DNA from: Octopus vulgaris
Taxonomy: Eukaryota
DNA: 64,000 nt
NCBI GenBank assembly: GCA_951406725.2
Contig: OX597815.1
Coordinates: 199,578,001-199,642,000, forward strand
Direction of reading: 5' to 3'
The position numbers and the translations under genes are program-made. Of the stretch, positions 13,431 to 21,028 are shown in pieces; position 1 is the stretch's first letter, and each line of letters starts with the position of its first letter. The notes beneath the pieces are model-generated. The model was not told where the DNA came from, searched no databases, and was given only the letters and a program-made list of their open reading frames with translations.

Positions 13431-14664
13431 AAAATAATTATAGCAAACACCATAGTGTTAGTATATAGGAAAGCAGACGGTACTCTCCTTCCATCTGGGA
13501 AACAACCGTACTTAATATATTGAAAAGGAGAAGACTGAAATTGCATATGGTGTATCTAATGCAAACTAGGGACACACAATGCATGCAGGTTAACAAATAG
13601 ATGCACAAATCTATAAACACTAAGAGCACAAGGGAAAGACCTAGGAGGGTCCCTTGAGGTAGTGGATAGCTTCTGTTACCAAGGTGACCCAATTAGCTTC
13701 GGAACAGGATGTTCTGAGAGTATAGTTGTTAGAATAAAAACAAGGTTGTATGGTGCTTGTATAGGTGGCTGTGGGTCCTGAACAACAGAGGGTAGGCAAA
13801 GATTAGAAAATTATGCAGAGGGCATCATTCTATTGAATGTGTAATGGAAGTATGCATGAACAAAGAAGAAATGTGTTGAGAGAAAAATTAGACATAAGGG
13901 GTATTACATGCAGCATGCAAAAAGGAGGGAGACCCAGAAAGACTTCTTTTCATTAATGCCATGACTTTTGTGGTAACAACGTTCCTTCGAATATCACAAA
14001 CAAAATGAAGAGATATGTGAAAAAATTCCCAGTACCACGATGGAAGATCTCAGGAAATGTGTTTCATTTGCCAAAAGACTATCGTAAGCTTAATATACTC
14101 TTTGACTTGTTTCAGTCATTTGACTGCGGCCATGCTGGAGCACCGTTTCTAGTCGAGTAAATCGACTCCAGGACTTATTCTTTGTAAGCCTAGTACTTAT
14201 TCTACCGGTCTCTTTAGCCAAACCGCTAAGTGACGGGGACGTAAACACACCAGCATCGATTGTCAAGCAATGCTAGGGGGACAAACACAGACACTCAAAC
14301 ATATATATATATATATATATATATACCCCTTAACTTTGTCACTAATGTTTTTTAGTATAACACCTACGCTAATTCTATAAACAAGCCTGTCAATATAAAT
14401 ATTCTCCTGAACTGAACTGCGACTGCCAGCCGCCACTGACCATTCAAAATACAACCATCAGGGCACTCCCAGATTCTCCCACCCCCTTTCCTCACCAGCC
14501 TTCTTCCTCTACTACCCTACCAAGAACTCACAAGACCTCCAACACACAAGTGCAAACAAGGGAGTCAGAGAAAGGCAGAATGCCACTTAAATCTGAACAC
14601 TACTATAGAAATATTCCTTTAAAAAAACTTTTCTTCTAATTTTTCTAAATTTAATTATTTAATC

Positions 14665-14710
14665 GTTACAGTTGAAAAGGTCTCAAAATGACCGAAACCA
14701 GTACTGAAAT
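14665..14710 (+). ncRNA. Minimal type I hammerhead ribozyme, U3-A8 core (5' pLTR copy)
   Basis: GTTACAG-TTGAAAA-GGTC(tcaaaat)GACC-GAAAC-CA-GTA-CTGAAAT. Confidence 0.7.
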
Positions 14711-15711
14711 GTTCACTATAAAATTATTTTAACATTTTCTATTTTTGACTTGTTTTTTCATATATATCAACTCGTGTGTTCCTTTTCACCCTTATACATA
14801 TCATTAACCCACACGAGATACAGAAAATGCCGACAAAAACAGACACAATCACCTCCATAAATGAAGAAATACTGAAAGAACTCAAGAAAATCAACACAAA
14901 TTTGTCAACATTTTTGAACAAATTCGACTCGACACATCAACCCAATCGAGAGAACAATGAGGAAACAGATACGAAAAATACAACCTCCGAAATTGTCGAA
15001 AACCTTGGAAACTTATGCGAAACAATTAGAACATTTTTCTCTAACAACGCTAACCAAGGACCTCCAAACGCGTCAATATATGGGATCAATACTCTAACAA
15101 CATACCAAATGAAACACCACATAATACCACAATGGAACAAATCACTCAGAGATAGAAAGTTCGCCTTTTGGAAGATGATCCAAAACAACAACAAAGCGGA
15201 TATATACGAAAAATGGCTCAACCGGACCCCATTAACTCCCACGTAAATTCAGTAATGCTATTACAGAAGAACCTGAAACACAAAGACTACCTCAGGGAGA
15301 GAATGGCACTGTCAAAAAAATGAAAATGGAAATAGAACTTCTGAAATTGAGGGCCCAAACGAATGAGGATTCAAAATAAAATCCACCGATGAAGATATCA
15401 ACGAAGAAATTCCCAAAATGACCCAAGGCCCAGAACTCACAAGACCTCCAACACACAAGTGCAAACAAGGGAGTCAGAGAAGTTCTCCAAAATCTGAACA
15501 CTGGAAAGAAAAAAACTTTTCTTCTAATTTTTCTAAATTTAATTATTTAATCGTTAAAGAAAAGGTCTCAAAATGACCGAAACCAGTACTGAAATGTTCA
15601 CTATAAAATTATTTTAACATTTTCTATTTTTGACTTGTTTTTTCATATATATCAACTCGTGTGTTCCTTTTCACCCTTATACATATCATTAACCCACACG
15701 AGATACAGAAA

Positions 15712-16947
15712 ATGCCGACAAAAACAGACACAATCACCTCCATAAATGAAGAAATACTGAAAGAACTCAAGAAAATCAACACAAATTTGTCAACATTTTT
15801 GAACAAATTCGACTCGACACATCAACCCAATCGAGAGAACAATGAGGAAACAGATACGAAAAATACAACCTCCGAAATTGTCGAAAACCTTGGAAACTTA
15901 TGCGAAACAATTAGAACATTTTTCTCTAACAACGCTAACCAAGGACCTCCAAACGCGTCAATATATGGGATCAATACTCTAACAACATACCAAATGAAAC
16001 ACCACATAATACCACAATGGAACAAATCACTCAGAGATAGAAAGTTCGCCTTTTGGAAGATGATCCAAAACAACAACAAAGCGGATATATACGAAAAATG
16101 GCTCAACCGGACCCCATTAATCCTCCCACGTAAATTCCAGTTCAAAGCTATTACAGAAGAACCTGAAACACAAAGACACCTCAGGGAGAGAATGGCACTG
16201 GAAAAAATGAAAATGGAAATAGAACTTCTGAAATTGAGGGCCCAAACGAATGAGGATAAAATAAAATCCACCGATGAAGATATCAACGAAGAAATTCGCA
16301 AAATGACCCAAGGCCCAGATCAAGAGAAGTTCTCCAAACTATGGAAAGAGGACTGTGAAAAAGAAGAACTAAAATCTCTCCAACGCTGGGAGAAAAGCGC
16401 CACTTGGTTCTCAGACTATGAAGCCGTCTTTCAAACAGAGCACGCCTCCAACAACCCTTTCCAGAAAATAAGAAAACCAAAACAACACCCAAACACCGAT
16501 ACACACCTGTCTAAAAATCGGAACCTTCACTACTATCAAAAAAAGAATACAGGACCTAACCCTAACTCTGTAAGCAGCCAGCGATACAATATCAGGAATA
16601 CCCCCACTTCAAGCAGAGAAAGGATAAATCAACACCCACAGCATAGACACTGCAACCTTATCCCCACCCAAAGGAGTTACCAACGAAATCTTCGTCCCAT
16701 CAACCGGTTAAACAACCATGCACGACAAACCCACACCACTTGCAATGATTACCAACGAAGGCCTCCTAGAACACCACACCCGAATATGGGATATCGAGAT
16801 GCTCTCCTCAATACTGCTCCAAGAACACACACCATAAATCACAACAGGAGACCCCACATCAACAAAGAACAACTATATACTAGCTACCGTCCCAACCACC
16901 GCATTCATTTTTTAGACCCAATACGCAAACACAGAGACACAAGATAG
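15712..16947 (+). CDS. PLE ORF1, 411 aa: helical/coiled-coil N-half and basic, low-complexity C-half
   Basis: Uninterrupted ORF from the first ATG; heptad-like ERMALEKMKMEIELLKLRAQTNEDKIKSTDEDINEEIRKM; R/N/H/P-rich tail; no family recognised. Confidence 0.75.
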   Translation: MPTKTDTITSINEEILKELKKINTNLSTFLNKFDSTHQPNRENNEETDTKNTTSEIVENLGNLCETIRTFFSNNANQGPPNASIYGINTLTTYQMKHHIIPQWNKSLRDRKFAFWKMIQNNNKADIYEKWLNRTPLILPRKFQFKAITEEPETQRHLRERMALEKMKMEIELLKLRAQTNEDKIKSTDEDINEEIRKMTQGPDQEKFSKLWKEDCEKEELKSLQRWEKSATWFSDYEAVFQTEHASNNPFQKIRKPKQHPNTDTHLSKNRNLHYYQKKNTGPNPNSVSSQRYNIRNTPTSSRERINQHPQHRHCNLIPTQRSYQRNLRPINRLNNHARQTHTTCNDYQRRPPRTPHPNMGYRDALLNTAPRTHTINHNRRPHINKEQLYTSYRPNHRIHFLDPIRKHRDTR

Positions 16948-19233
16948 CACCAAACAAGCAGGAGGAACCAAAAGTAATAAAAATGATCAATCTAACTCAC
17001 AAGGAACTAACAGCAAACCAAATAAACATACTTTCCAAAGGACTCAAGTTTACACCCACCCCACAACACCCCAACTACAACGAAATGAAAGAAGACATCG
17101 CAGAATTCTGCAGAAAATTAAGACTTACTGAGGAGCTATACGATAAATACAACGAGGACGAATCGTTAGCCAGAAATAGGAGTAACTACACCCCCTCGAA
17201 AGGTAAGAACAAAACACTTGATGATTTCTGTGACCACATATCTAATTACCCATATCAACATATGCACAAACAAAAACACAAACCAAACTTCAGCAAAAAA
17301 GAATGGGCTGAGTTGAACAAATTAAAACTAGATAAAACAATAACAATCAAAGAGGCCGATAAAGGGAGTGCTGTTGTCTTAATGGATACGACATTTTACA
17401 AAACTTTGGTACTTTCTATGCTGGAAGACACAACATACTATGAAAAGGCACAAAACTACAGTCAACAAAAAATAATGAGGGAACTAAAATCCATATTAAA
17501 CCCATACAAAGCAGGGCTCACCGACAAAGAATATGATTATATGACCAATTTCACAAGCAAAACCAGCCAATTCTACGGTATACCTAAGATCCACAAAAGT
17601 GAGAAAATAAGCAACGCATGCAAGATAGCTACAGACAAAATAATTAAAGTCCCTAATCCTAATGACCTCAAATTGAGACCCATAATAGCAGGTCCCGCAT
17701 GCGAAACCCACCGCCTCAGTAACTTTTTAGACACCCTGTTAAAACCACTCCTAAAACATGTCAAAAGCTATATAAGGGACGACTTAGATATGCTCAATCA
17801 CCTACCGAATACTATAAACAAAAACACCATACTGGTATCCTTCGATGTAGTCAACCTCTACTCCAATATCCCCCACAACCTAGGACTAGAGGCAATCCAA
17901 TTCTGGCTAGAAAATCACGCCAACGAACTACCACATCGCATCAAAAAAGAATTCGTGATAGAAGGGGTTAAATTCATCCTGGAAAATAACTTCTTCGCCT
18001 TCAATGACTTCTACCGACAAAAATCGGGGACTGCGATGGGTACATGAATGGCCCCCTCCTTTGCCAACCTAGTCATAGGATATCTAGAGATCAGTCTGTA
18101 TCGTAAGGTTCTAGAAAGATATGGCAGCCCTTTCTCCATCTACATAGAAAACAACTGGAAGAGATATCTAGATGACTGTTTCATCCTTTGGCATAAAAAT
18201 ATAGAAAAACTCATAGAATTCCAGGAAATTTTAAACGGACTGGACGTAAACATCCAATTCACGATGGAATATAGCCAGCAACAACTCCCCTTCCTCGATA
18301 TCCTCATTAAGAAAGCTAATAATATAATAGAAACAGACATATATTATAAGCCTACAGACTCTAAGCAATATCTTCCATTCAATTCATGCCACCCCAGACA
18401 CACCAGGATGAATATCCCCTTCAACCTAGCAAAAAGGATATGCACTATAGTCTCGAACGCAAACACCAGAGACACACGACTACAAGAACTAAAAGATACC
18501 CTTATCACCAGGAACTATCCACCTTCACTTATTGACAAGTGCATTCAACGTGCCCTTCAACTTAACATCAAGGAACTGAGACATCCCAAATCAAAGAAAA
18601 CTTACAACCAAAAGCCTTACCATACATCTCCACACACAACCCTCTCAATAACGAAGCCTTCGGCACCATCCTCCACAACATACCCCTCCTAAAAAAAGAC
18701 CACAGAATGAACACAATCCTCCAAACACACACGATCATAAAAAGCAAGAGACAGCCTAAATCCATGAAAAGTCTCCTAACACAAGCCCGAATTCACTCTT
18801 CAACACAGAAGCCGACAGTAAAAAAATGTGGAAGACCCAATTGCGGGATATGCGACTATCTAATTGAGGGATCAGAGTTCTCCTTCAAACAGGGACAACG
18901 GTTTACAGTGAAAAGCAACTTTACATGTGCTTCGGAGAACCTAATATACTCACTAACCTGCTCCGGGTGTCAAGAGCAGTACATAGGCCAAACAAAAAAT
19001 AGTTTGCGTAAACGAATGGCCCTGCACAGATCCCAGATAAAAATTCCCCAAAACAGAAAAATAGCTTTTAGCCAACACATAGATACTTGCGCCAACAAAA
19101 AACACCAAGCTTCAGGATTTTCCCCCTCTACCAATTTAGGGACGATACAACCTCGAGACAACGAATAAGTAAAGAAACTCTCTTTATTGCAAAATAGAGG
19201 CCACTTCTTAACGGGTTTACGACAAACAATTAA
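16884..19233 (+). pseudogene. PLE reverse transcriptase + GIY-YIG endonuclease ORF, disrupted
   Basis: KEADKG, FYGIPKIHK, LRPII, LVSFDVVNLYSNIP, GTAMGT, WKRYLDD, LPFLD, SCHPRH, NLIYSLTC..YIGQT..LRKRMALH, RPLLN; TGA at 18045, -1 shifts in A-runs near 18600 and 19100, TAG near 19195. Confidence 0.92.
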
Positions 19234-19379
19234 TATACCTCAACTTTAGAATAAAAGAAATATTCACACACAAATATTACATTCCAAAGAATCCATTACT
19301 AATCACAGCTATAATCCATAACATACCAACTTCAAGTCATACAACACCTCCCTACTTTAACCCATTCATATTCTCCCTT

Positions 19380-19580
19380 CTCTGTTTTTTTCTTCTTCTT
19401 CCTCTTCTTCTTCATCATCATCATTATCATCATCATCGTCGTCATAATCTTCACCACCATCACCATCATCTTCTCCTTCTCCTTCTTCTTCTTCTTCTTC
19501 TTCATCATCATCATCAACATCGTCATCTTCTTCTTCTTCTACTTCTTCTTCTTCTTCTTCATCTACTTCTCCACCTCCTA
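19380..19580. repeat. (CTT)n/(CAT)n compound microsatellite in the PLE 3' UTR
   Basis: Direct. Confidence 0.9.
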
Positions 19581-19919
19581 CCCCTTAACTTTGTCACTAA
19601 TGTTTTTTAGTATAACACCTACGCTAATTCTATAAACAAGCCTGTCAATATAAATATTCTCCTGAACTGAACTGCGACTGCCAGCCGCCACTGACCATTC
19701 AAAATACGACCATCAGGGCACTCCCAGATTCTCCCACCCCTTTCCTCACCAGCCTTCTTCCTCTACTACCCTACCAAGAACTCACAACGACCTCCAACAC
19801 ACAAGTGCAAACAAGGGAGTCAGAGAAAGGCAGAATGCCACTTAAATCTGAACACTACTATAGAAATATTCCTTTAAAAAAACTTTTCTTCTAATTTTTC
19901 TAAATTTAATTATTTAATC

Positions 19920-19965
19920 GTTACAGTTGAAAAGGTCTCAAAATGACCGAAACCGGTACTGAAAT
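19920..19965 (+). ncRNA. Minimal type I hammerhead ribozyme, U3-A8 core (3' pLTR copy, intact ACCGGT palindrome)
   Basis: GTTACAG-TTGAAAA-GGTC(tcaaaat)GACC-GAAAC-CG-GTA-CTGAAAT; predicted cleavage after A19958. Confidence 0.78.
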
Positions 19966-20575
19966 GTTCACTATAAAATTATTTTAGCATTTTCTATTTT
20001 TGACTTGTTTTTTCATATATATATATATATATATATATACGACAGGCTTCTGTCAGTTTCCGTCTACCCAAATCCACTCACAAGGCATTGGTCGACCCGG
20101 GGCTATAGCAGAAGACACTTGCCCAAGATGCCATGCAGTGGGACTGAACCCGGAACCATGTGGTTGGTTAGCAAGCTACTTACCACACAGTCACTCCTGC
20201 GCCTAATATGATGAAGTGTGTTTTTGAAGGCATCCAAGCTGTTCTATGTGGAGGTGTAGAAGTCGTACATGACTTAAAATTTGAGGGTTGAAATGCAAAG
20301 AGATGAAAAAATCAGAATACAAAAAGCTTCAAAGTCTGAAAGCTCAGAATAACAAATTCTGAAACGCTTTAAGACAAAAAAAATTATTATTATTATAGTG
20401 ACAAGAAAAATTATTATTATAAAATAGGGAGAGCGGATCTCTAGTTACCGAACCCCATGGAGGAGATGTCAAAGGACCAAAATAACTGGTGATAGGCAGT
20501 GCTAGAGAAGACTAAACCGTCTTGTTGAATGAGGTTCCAGAAGCACAATCTATATATATATATTTGTTTGGATTA

Positions 20576-20623
<48 letters not shown>

Positions 20624-20796
20624 AATTGTGATAGGGGTTGTAAATGCAACCCTCCATGGGATAACATATATCCAATATACTGCTAGTGAAGTACCCAACA
20701 AAGTTAATACATAAATGTTAATGATTGTGATGCAATCAATTCAGTTACTGTATTATATGGGCAAAGGTAAAATGATTTACCACAAATTACTAATAC

Positions 20797-20988
20797 AAGA
20801 TAAGAAAATGGTGAAATACATCTAAATCAAATATCAATTACCAGATAATACTCAATCACATACTTTATTAAACCACCACATAAGAGACCGAACCCTACAG
20901 TCTCTTATGTGGTGGTTTAATAAAGTATGTGATTGAGTATTATCTGGTAATTGATATTTGATTTAGATGTATTTCTCCATTTTCTTAT

Positions 20989-20991
<3 letters not shown>
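20797..20991. repeat. Long inverted repeat: 92-bp arms, 1 mismatch, 11-nt loop
   Basis: 20797-20888 is the reverse complement of 20900-20991. Confidence 0.95.

Positions 20992-21028
<37 letters not shown>

Follow-up and report, generated by a model that had tools for sequence, protein, structure and literature searches.

A predicted −1 frameshift site ten codons upstream of the ORF1 stop in an endonuclease-bearing Penelope-like element of Octopus vulgaris

Penelope-like elements (PLEs) have been described as having either one open reading frame (ORF) with an endonuclease or two ORFs without one (Arkhipova and Yushenova 2019, PMC6431247), and the endonuclease-bearing group is described as single-ORF (Craig 2021, PMC8557442). 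Here we analyse a 64,000-nucleotide (nt) stretch of the Octopus vulgaris genome (GenBank assembly GCA_951406725.2, contig OX597815.1, positions 199,578,001 to 199,642,000, forward strand), hereafter the window, which carries an endonuclease-bearing PLE with two overlapping ORFs. The upstream ORF1 encodes a predicted helical protein, and the downstream ORF, in the −1 frame, encodes a reverse transcriptase (RT) with a C-terminal GIY-YIG endonuclease. Within the overlap lies a T TTT TTA heptamer (U UUU UUA in the RNA), which we read, with a probability of roughly 0.85, as a programmed −1 frameshift site joining the two ORFs in a gag–pol-like ratio. Ribosomes would slip back one base on U UUU UUA to yield a rare ORF1–RT–endonuclease fusion, and most would stop ten codons later, releasing ORF1 alone.

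The element shares with Neptune and Nematis PLEs, as characterized in PMC8557442, a C-terminal GIY-YIG domain, a Cx2-5CxxC motif, GxKF and DKG motifs, pseudo-long terminal repeats (pseudo-LTRs), (TA)n flanks and, as a candidate, a hammerhead-like motif; unlike the elements described there, it carries a conserved ORF1 as a distinct frame joined in −1. According to the legend to Fig. 1 of Craig 2021 (PMC8557442), a frameshift with a pseudoknot can set off the ORF1 of PLEs, and the figure may already draw a frameshift for Neptune. With such two-ORF PLEs the window element has in common a helical ORF1 upstream of a PLE RT and the frameshift join, and it departs from them in its endonuclease, in the absence of a pseudoknot in the window and most relatives, and in the 10-codon distance to the stop. 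The frameshift-separated layout is reportedly that of Athena elements and Terminons. Neptune-like PLEs with an esterase ORF1 are also known (PMC3905857, PMC5408684), as is a Neptune element of killifish whose two ORFs do not overlap (PMC12602865). These likewise combine an endonuclease with an upstream ORF, but ORF1 of the window belongs to another family, and the available parts of those reports describe no frameshift.

The gag–pol site of HIV-1 is followed by a stem-loop. No stem-loop is present at the window junction, and the window element is not a retrovirus; the two systems are alike in the sequence U UUU UUA and in having a structural ORF upstream of an enzyme ORF in −1 (PMC4373837). 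In the Escherichia coli reporters of Smith 2019 (PMC6815119), as here, the heptad precedes a stop codon by roughly the length of one ribosome, without RNA structure. Those constructs are engineered and bacterial with an optimum of 9 codons, whereas the present case is natural and eukaryotic, with 10 codons and a mechanism that is predicted. In SARS-CoV-2 the stop codon of the 0 frame lies 5 codons downstream and allows the pseudoknot to refold (Bhatt 2021, PMC8168617); here the distance is at least 10 codons and structure is mostly absent.

Our literature search returned no slippery site for endonuclease-bearing PLEs, although Arkhipova 2006/2017, Repbase or the figures of Craig 2021 may already show a two-ORF layout; it also returned nothing on heptamer-to-stop spacing and no natural stop-codon-roadblock frameshift. 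We regard the frameshift itself as partly anticipated in print and the 10-codon rule as new to the literature searched. An earlier interpretation of this DNA, made from the letters alone (the sequence-only reading), had presented the ORF1–RT frameshift as a novelty. This holds with respect to the single-ORF description of endonuclease-bearing PLEs, and is somewhat lowered by the legend in PMC8557442 and by the Neptune-like elements with an esterase ORF1. The sequence-only reading missed the 10-codon distance to the ORF1 stop.

The ORF1–RT junction and its relatives

ORF1 (15712–16947; 411 aa) lies on the + strand, as do all features of the element described below. It runs from an ATG at 15712 to a TAG at 16945–16947, in a frame that is open over 15634–16947. 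The RT frame is −1 relative to ORF1 and open from 16884, giving an overlap of 64 nt. Inside this overlap, the ORF1 frame divides TTTTTTA at 16908–16914 into T TTT TTA, with Phe and Leu codons, so that it stands in the X XXY YYZ register. The sequence-only reading had given the same geometry and register, and its coordinates proved correct. The junction has features of a programmed −1 site, namely an in-register X XXY YYZ heptamer that lies inside a −1 overlap and is conserved in evolution.

A stem-loop or pseudoknot 5–9 nt downstream, a further mark of such sites, is absent from the window. The minimum free energy was 0.0 kcal/mol over the 45 nt after the heptamer and −1.4 kcal/mol over 100 nt (z of +0.7 to +2.0 against shuffles), and a simple search (a crude script with 15 shuffles) returned no H-type pseudoknot, in agreement with the earlier remark that no clear stem follows. 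Among 10 junctions, only that of locus L001 is clearly structured, with L004 and L081 borderline, and no stimulatory stem or pseudoknot conserved across the related junctions was found.

To place the junction among its relatives, we used the best 80 of 388 confirmed metagenome loci and 7 genome loci from sequence scans; the four genomes behind four of those 7 supplied 30 more. Nine close loci have a visible junction (L001–L005, L008, L010, L081 and L098, of which L008 and L010 are siblings), with RTs 40–46% identical. In eight of the nine, T TTT TT(A/G) stands in register, with A in L001, L003, L004, L005, L008 and L010 and G in L002 and L081. The distant loci L009 and L091 also carry an in-register T6(A/G). 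By comparison, the RT coding regions of ten related loci, 19,445 nt together, contain three instances of TTTTTT[AG], against an in-register junction heptamer in 10 other loci; the in-register heptamer is more frequent than chance. A count of T residues across homologous junctions, proposed in the sequence-only reading as a check on its frameshift, gave exactly six in all ten tabulated junctions.

The start of the RT frame follows the same pattern. In all nine heptamer loci tabulated (L010 left out), the RT frame opens 0–45 nt upstream of the heptamer, and in eight of these nine there is no Met ahead of the conserved RT N-terminal motif, the exception being L091. In the window, the sole AUG of the RT frame ahead of this motif is at 16983–16985; it is not family-wide, because contigs from sequencing run X6 carry another letter there (82.6 of 82.6 depth, 2 contigs). 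No fused ORF1–RT protein was found among the RT matches, the best 120 of 255 (679–2000 aa) spanning 684–899 aa. In the same vein, but more weakly, none of 4,787 long candidates matched ORF1.

The ORF1 proteins record the heptamer in their C-terminal residues. From 156 proteins we set aside 52 with a tail shorter than 70 aa, leaving 104 that are tail-complete; Phe-Leu lies at most 45 aa from the C terminus in 80 of them. In a smaller ORF1 set, Phe-Leu falls inside the last 30 aa in 52 of 81 proteins (shuffles: mean 3.7, maximum 10). None of the 80 proteins has E, Q, K, M or W directly before Phe (background 21%), as expected if the preceding codon must end in T for T TTT TTR.

We also mapped four sequencing runs to 15650–19250, namely the X6 contigs and the raw-read runs X21, X22 and X23. 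The X6 contigs cover all 30 bins, and record 4 crosses the junction over 16770–17110 at a depth of 70 with 0 gaps; it has five substitutions, two of them without an assigned position. All four breaks of the window copy (a 3-nt gap near 18006, a stop at 18045–18047 and frame breaks near 18596 and 19096), which the sequence-only reading had partly noted and which we could verify, are missing from X6. Because X6 lacks these breaks yet keeps the junction, we assign the former to this copy or its assembly and the latter to the family.

Beyond the close relatives, the signal is sparse. L091 (G004:C61; 658–703) and L009 (331–370) have stops 12 and 10 codons past the heptamer, and neither matched the ORF1 core profile. 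As L091 also falls outside the main RT group, the signal may predate ORF1 or have arisen twice. More distant PLE loci mostly have long open N termini and no in-register T6. The sole in-register case, the T6A of L104, was not counted, since a long open RT frame lies upstream and a stop follows two codons later, which makes it incidental. An ORF1 core fused to RT was not found at a convincing score in the distant PLE loci (L067 reached E 0.001 only). In three loci, upstream ORFs of 815, 324 and 396 codons overlap the RT frame in −1 without T6 (L055, 2358–2445; L047, 933–972; L079, 1200–1254), and L055 has T TTA AAC in register, one codon ahead of the stop.

Distance from the heptamer to the ORF1 stop codon

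In the window, an unstructured spacer of 10 codons (30 nt; 16915–16944) separates the heptamer from the ORF1 stop TAG (16945–16947). Across the family, the distance from Phe-Leu to the ORF1 stop is exactly 10 codons in 29 of 80 proteins and 11–40 in the others, and is below 10 in none. The 29 ten-residue tails are 10% identical and unalignable at equal length; therefore, the length is kept and the sequence is not. At the DNA loci, the spacing is 10 (window, L002, L004, L008, L009 and L010), 12 (L003, L005 and L091), 17 (L001) or 19 (L081). The window's closest ORF1 relatives (P0121, P0123, P0124 and P0134) have Trp at codon 11 past Phe-Leu, where the window has its stop, and end at codon 21, 20 codons past Phe-Leu.

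Under free drift, with a stop rate of 0.082 per codon taken from the same frame inside RT rather than from the linker, the first 10 codons would be open only 43% of the time. The floor at 10 then has p ~3e-5 if there are 12 independent lineages, a number that is an assumption. The two loci with long spacing, L001 (17) and L081 (19), have the most negative folding z values (−3.7 and −2.3; a post hoc comparison, n = 10). We do not claim a 10/20/30 periodicity (6 cases at 20, 3 at 30 and 3 at 31), since four of the six at 20 come from near relatives.

Slippage is generally placed at the translocation step, with the heptamer in the P/A or E/P sites. A spacing of 10 codons corresponds to about one eukaryotic ribosome. 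With the ORF1 stop in the A site of a leading ribosome, a follower 11 or 10 codons back would hold the heptamer in its P/A or E/P sites, so that the terminating ribosome could block the follower during translocation across the heptamer. If the stop were nearer, the follower would not reach the heptamer, which fits the floor at 10 codons, and the missing stem may itself be owed to the conserved 10-codon distance. Lineages with longer spacing may use RNA structure instead. By analogy with the reporters of Smith 2019 (PMC6815119), in which a stop 8–10 codons past a slippery heptad raises −1 slips of trailing ribosomes in E. coli, with a peak at 9 by the same count, we tentatively propose, at less than even odds, that the stimulator is the ribosome terminating at the ORF1 stop. 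Frameshifting in a large clade of endonuclease-bearing PLEs would then be collision-programmed and structure-free. The two ribosomes of a yeast disome stand 10 and in some cases 11 codons apart (bioRxiv 2023.02.01.526718).

If this proposal holds, RT output would scale with ribosome load and termination speed, and the element would provide a natural eukaryotic case of collision-programmed frameshifting, which the literature searched shows only as an engineered E. coli reporter. Should the 10-codon rule be mechanistic, the terminating ribosome would be added to the stimulators of frameshifting already known in nature, RNA structures and proteins. The 29 natural spacers, equal in length and unrelated in sequence, form a test set for purposeful ribosome collisions in eukaryotes. 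The frameshift would have consequences of its own. A helical ORF1 and a conserved −1 site in a family of at least 917 clusters would change the single-ORF picture of endonuclease-bearing PLEs; the annotated 'RT-EN' proteins of the clade would have wrong starts, and ORF1 would be an unrecognized candidate ribonucleoprotein or structural protein.

Weighing other explanations

Several observations count against a programmed frameshift. Twenty-four of the 104 tail-complete ORF1 proteins have no terminal Phe-Leu, and the codon after Phe-Leu starts with G in 61 of 80 (background 19%), which also fits a TAG splice acceptor. In that case, TTTTTTAG would be a 3′ splice acceptor and RT would be made from spliced RNA; the T run leads into an AG in the window and in 7 of 10 further loci that have it, and spliceosomal introns are known in PLEs (PMC4209133). 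We nevertheless consider splicing very unlikely. No AG is present in L002, L009 and L081, whose sequence is TTTTTTGT; a G-initial codon is impossible for 19 of the 80 next residues; and in all ten tabulated junctions the six T follow a purine and keep the ORF1 Phe-Leu register, neither of which an acceptor needs. No joint into 16916 is listed for X6, and one of its contigs runs unspliced through the site, a point that matters only so far as X6 is RNA, which is a guess. Also on the opposing side is L098 (G003:C197, minus strand 2528–2585), which has an ORF1 homologue and the same −1 overlap with T TAT TTT in place of T6, and an in-frame AUG arising from ORF1 Arg-Trp codons; this lineage may have changed its way of starting RT. 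Proteins P0132 and P0142 end like L098, in Tyr-Phe-Arg. The five closest RT proteins (P0003–P0006 and P0008) are called with Met at the place of ORF1 Trp/stop codon 11, which could be a true alternative AUG or a gene-caller effect of N-TGG, and some lineages may start RT separately. RT might accordingly be initiated near the ORF1 stop, by termination–reinitiation or by leaky or near-cognate initiation, with the T run a tether or a by-product; in the window an AUA overlaps the UAG in the RT frame, and a fixed distance to the stop would suit a tether as well. As an account of the junction in general, we hold this very unlikely. The ORF1 stop is TAA or TAG in 9 of 10 tabulated junctions, so that no AUGA overlap is possible there, and ATGA occurs in 0 of 10, which rules out a stop–start overlap of this kind; most heptamer loci lack the upstream Met, as described above, and, followed upstream, the RT frame extends as far as the heptamer and closes just beyond it. 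For L098 and the closest relatives of the window, RT may be initiated separately. Hardly credible is an assembly or decay artefact in which a lost T split one fused ORF. One-base losses do occur in A runs elsewhere in the window copy, the duplicated ORF1 5′ half and pseudo-LTR at 14749–15633 contain many small deletions, and junction depth is zero in the raw-read runs (X21, 10 reads; X22, 92; X23, 0; all elsewhere). Against this, the X6 contig keeps the junction gap-free, all nine close loci and the distant L009 and L091 show the same −1 geometry, and the protein searches gave no fused form; the homopolymer deletion that the sequence-only reading had entertained as a caveat is rejected.

The role of the terminating ribosome faces objections of its own. 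The spacing exceeds 10 codons in 51 of 80 ORF1 proteins, L004 combines a 10-codon spacing with a hairpin (z −2.2), and in one mammalian profiling study stacked ribosomes before stop codons were barely seen (PMC12458348). On a quick ORF1 tree of 75 rows the 10-codon state is clustered, with 10 changes against 22.3 when shuffled, so the 29 ten-codon cases are not independent. U UUU UUA may slip without a stimulator, as reported for HIV-1 and alphaviruses. We give about even odds to the view that frameshifting is real and that the 10-codon spacing has another cause: a stimulator-free slip, a length requirement of the nascent peptide or ORF1 C terminus, or inheritance within one subclade. The last fits the tree, on which 26 of 27 rows with a spacing of 10 sit in one 41-row subclade, and a Phe-Leu 11–12 residues from the end could itself slow termination. 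What speaks against these causes is that tails which cannot be aligned have one and the same length across long branches, that no family member falls under 10, and that the window has a spacing of 10 within a starred group in which the five remaining rows have 20 or 26.

The element, its class and its surroundings

The RT ORF begins with a 5′ part in the −1 frame (16884–18047) that carries NL[ST]...GLKF, DKG and YGxPKIHK motifs, is at most 63% identical to RT–GIY-YIG proteins and ends at the premature stop. The RT core and thumb, with YLDD (18048–18692), continue in the same frame past this stop and are broken near 18596. A linker with a Cx4CxxC zinc-finger-like motif and the GIY-YIG endonuclease follow (18566–19215), broken near 19096; the PF01541 match has E 3.7e-4, just under the cut-off. 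Compared with P0004, a protein with RVT_1 and GIY-YIG domains, the window enzyme ORF is 61% identical over 556 aa. Named homologues come from Mytilus, Saccostrea and clam-symbiont assemblies. With its four breaks, the window copy is dead.

The combination of RT and C-terminal GIY-YIG is that of endonuclease-bearing PLEs, as is the pair of direct repeats described below. The Cx2-5CxxC motif of Neptune and Nematis is present as CGRPNCGIC, its cysteines nearly invariant in the RT alignment. Both the window and 9 of 9 close loci have two overlapping ORFs, and because the single-ORF description does not apply, the element is a variant of the endonuclease-bearing PLEs. Athena elements and Terminons have no endonuclease and attach to telomeres; with GIY-YIG present and (TA)n flanks, an Athena identity is ruled out. 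The features alone would place the element with the Neptune/Nematis type and are common to both names. The label Neptune-like, given by the sequence-only reading, thus stands as to Cx2-5CxxC and GIY-YIG, and does not separate Neptune from Nematis.

A quick RT tree of 42 rows, which left out L004, L005, L008, L009, L010 and L098 and included no named Neptune or Nematis references, placed the window in one group (SH-aLRT 90, unstarred) together with four further T6 loci and nine RT matches, with L091 outside. A scan of viral contigs returned no relative. Several relatives (L081–L087, P0026, P0074, P0086 and P0104) are eukaryotic elements inside bacterial assemblies (Bacteroidota, SUP05, Campylobacteraceae, Thiodiazotropha and a Solemya symbiont), probably as host contamination. 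Genome G004 has 155 PLE matches.

The ORF1 protein consists of an all-helical core (~residues 91–254) and a low-complexity N/Q/R-rich tail that ends in Phe-Leu plus 10 aa. At 50% identity its family falls into 917 clusters; none of the best 150 is longer than 546 aa, so that no form fused to RT appears among these either. AlphaFold2 predicts three long helices for the core (pLDDT 89). Pfam gave no match to ORF1 above cut-off, esterases included, and Foldseek against the PDB gave nothing at E <= 0.001 for the core. For residues 1–262 of P0121, the top ESM Atlas features were Gag-like and PNMA clusters at 0.83–0.85, under the 0.9 threshold; shuffled proteins reach 0.8 one-third of the time. The Gag-like resemblance is a lead only, for a predicted three-helix core without a capsid-fold match.

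The ends of the element are two pseudo-LTRs, at 14324–14767 (left) and 19579–20022 (right), which are 99% identical and each lie beside a (TA)n run, on the 5′ side of the left copy and after the right copy. By repeat comparison, 14749–15633 is a partial tandem, in which the 5′ part of ORF1 is present a second time in broken form along with an incomplete third pseudo-LTR; this may represent the partial-tandem arrangement of PLEs or reflect noisy assembly. The 64-kb window has no copies beyond the element and this partial duplicate. The motif at 19913–19977 in the right pseudo-LTR scored 19.7 bits (E 0.35) against Rfam HH9, below the gathering score of 52, its first core box being off consensus. 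Hammerhead-like motifs with this non-canonical box are present in 3 of 3 pseudo-LTR copies (14658–14722, 15546–15610 and 19913–19977), the middle copy being partly deleted.

Two further features lie outside the element. At 1829–2578, an open frame of 249 codons is built of an 18-residue tandem repeat; it scored against Pfam ACP_syn_III_C without a passing stretch, probably as a repeat artefact. At 20793–20995, beside a (TA)n run, two 96-nt arms (98% complementary) around an 11-nt loop form a near-perfect inverted repeat that resembles a small foldback element.

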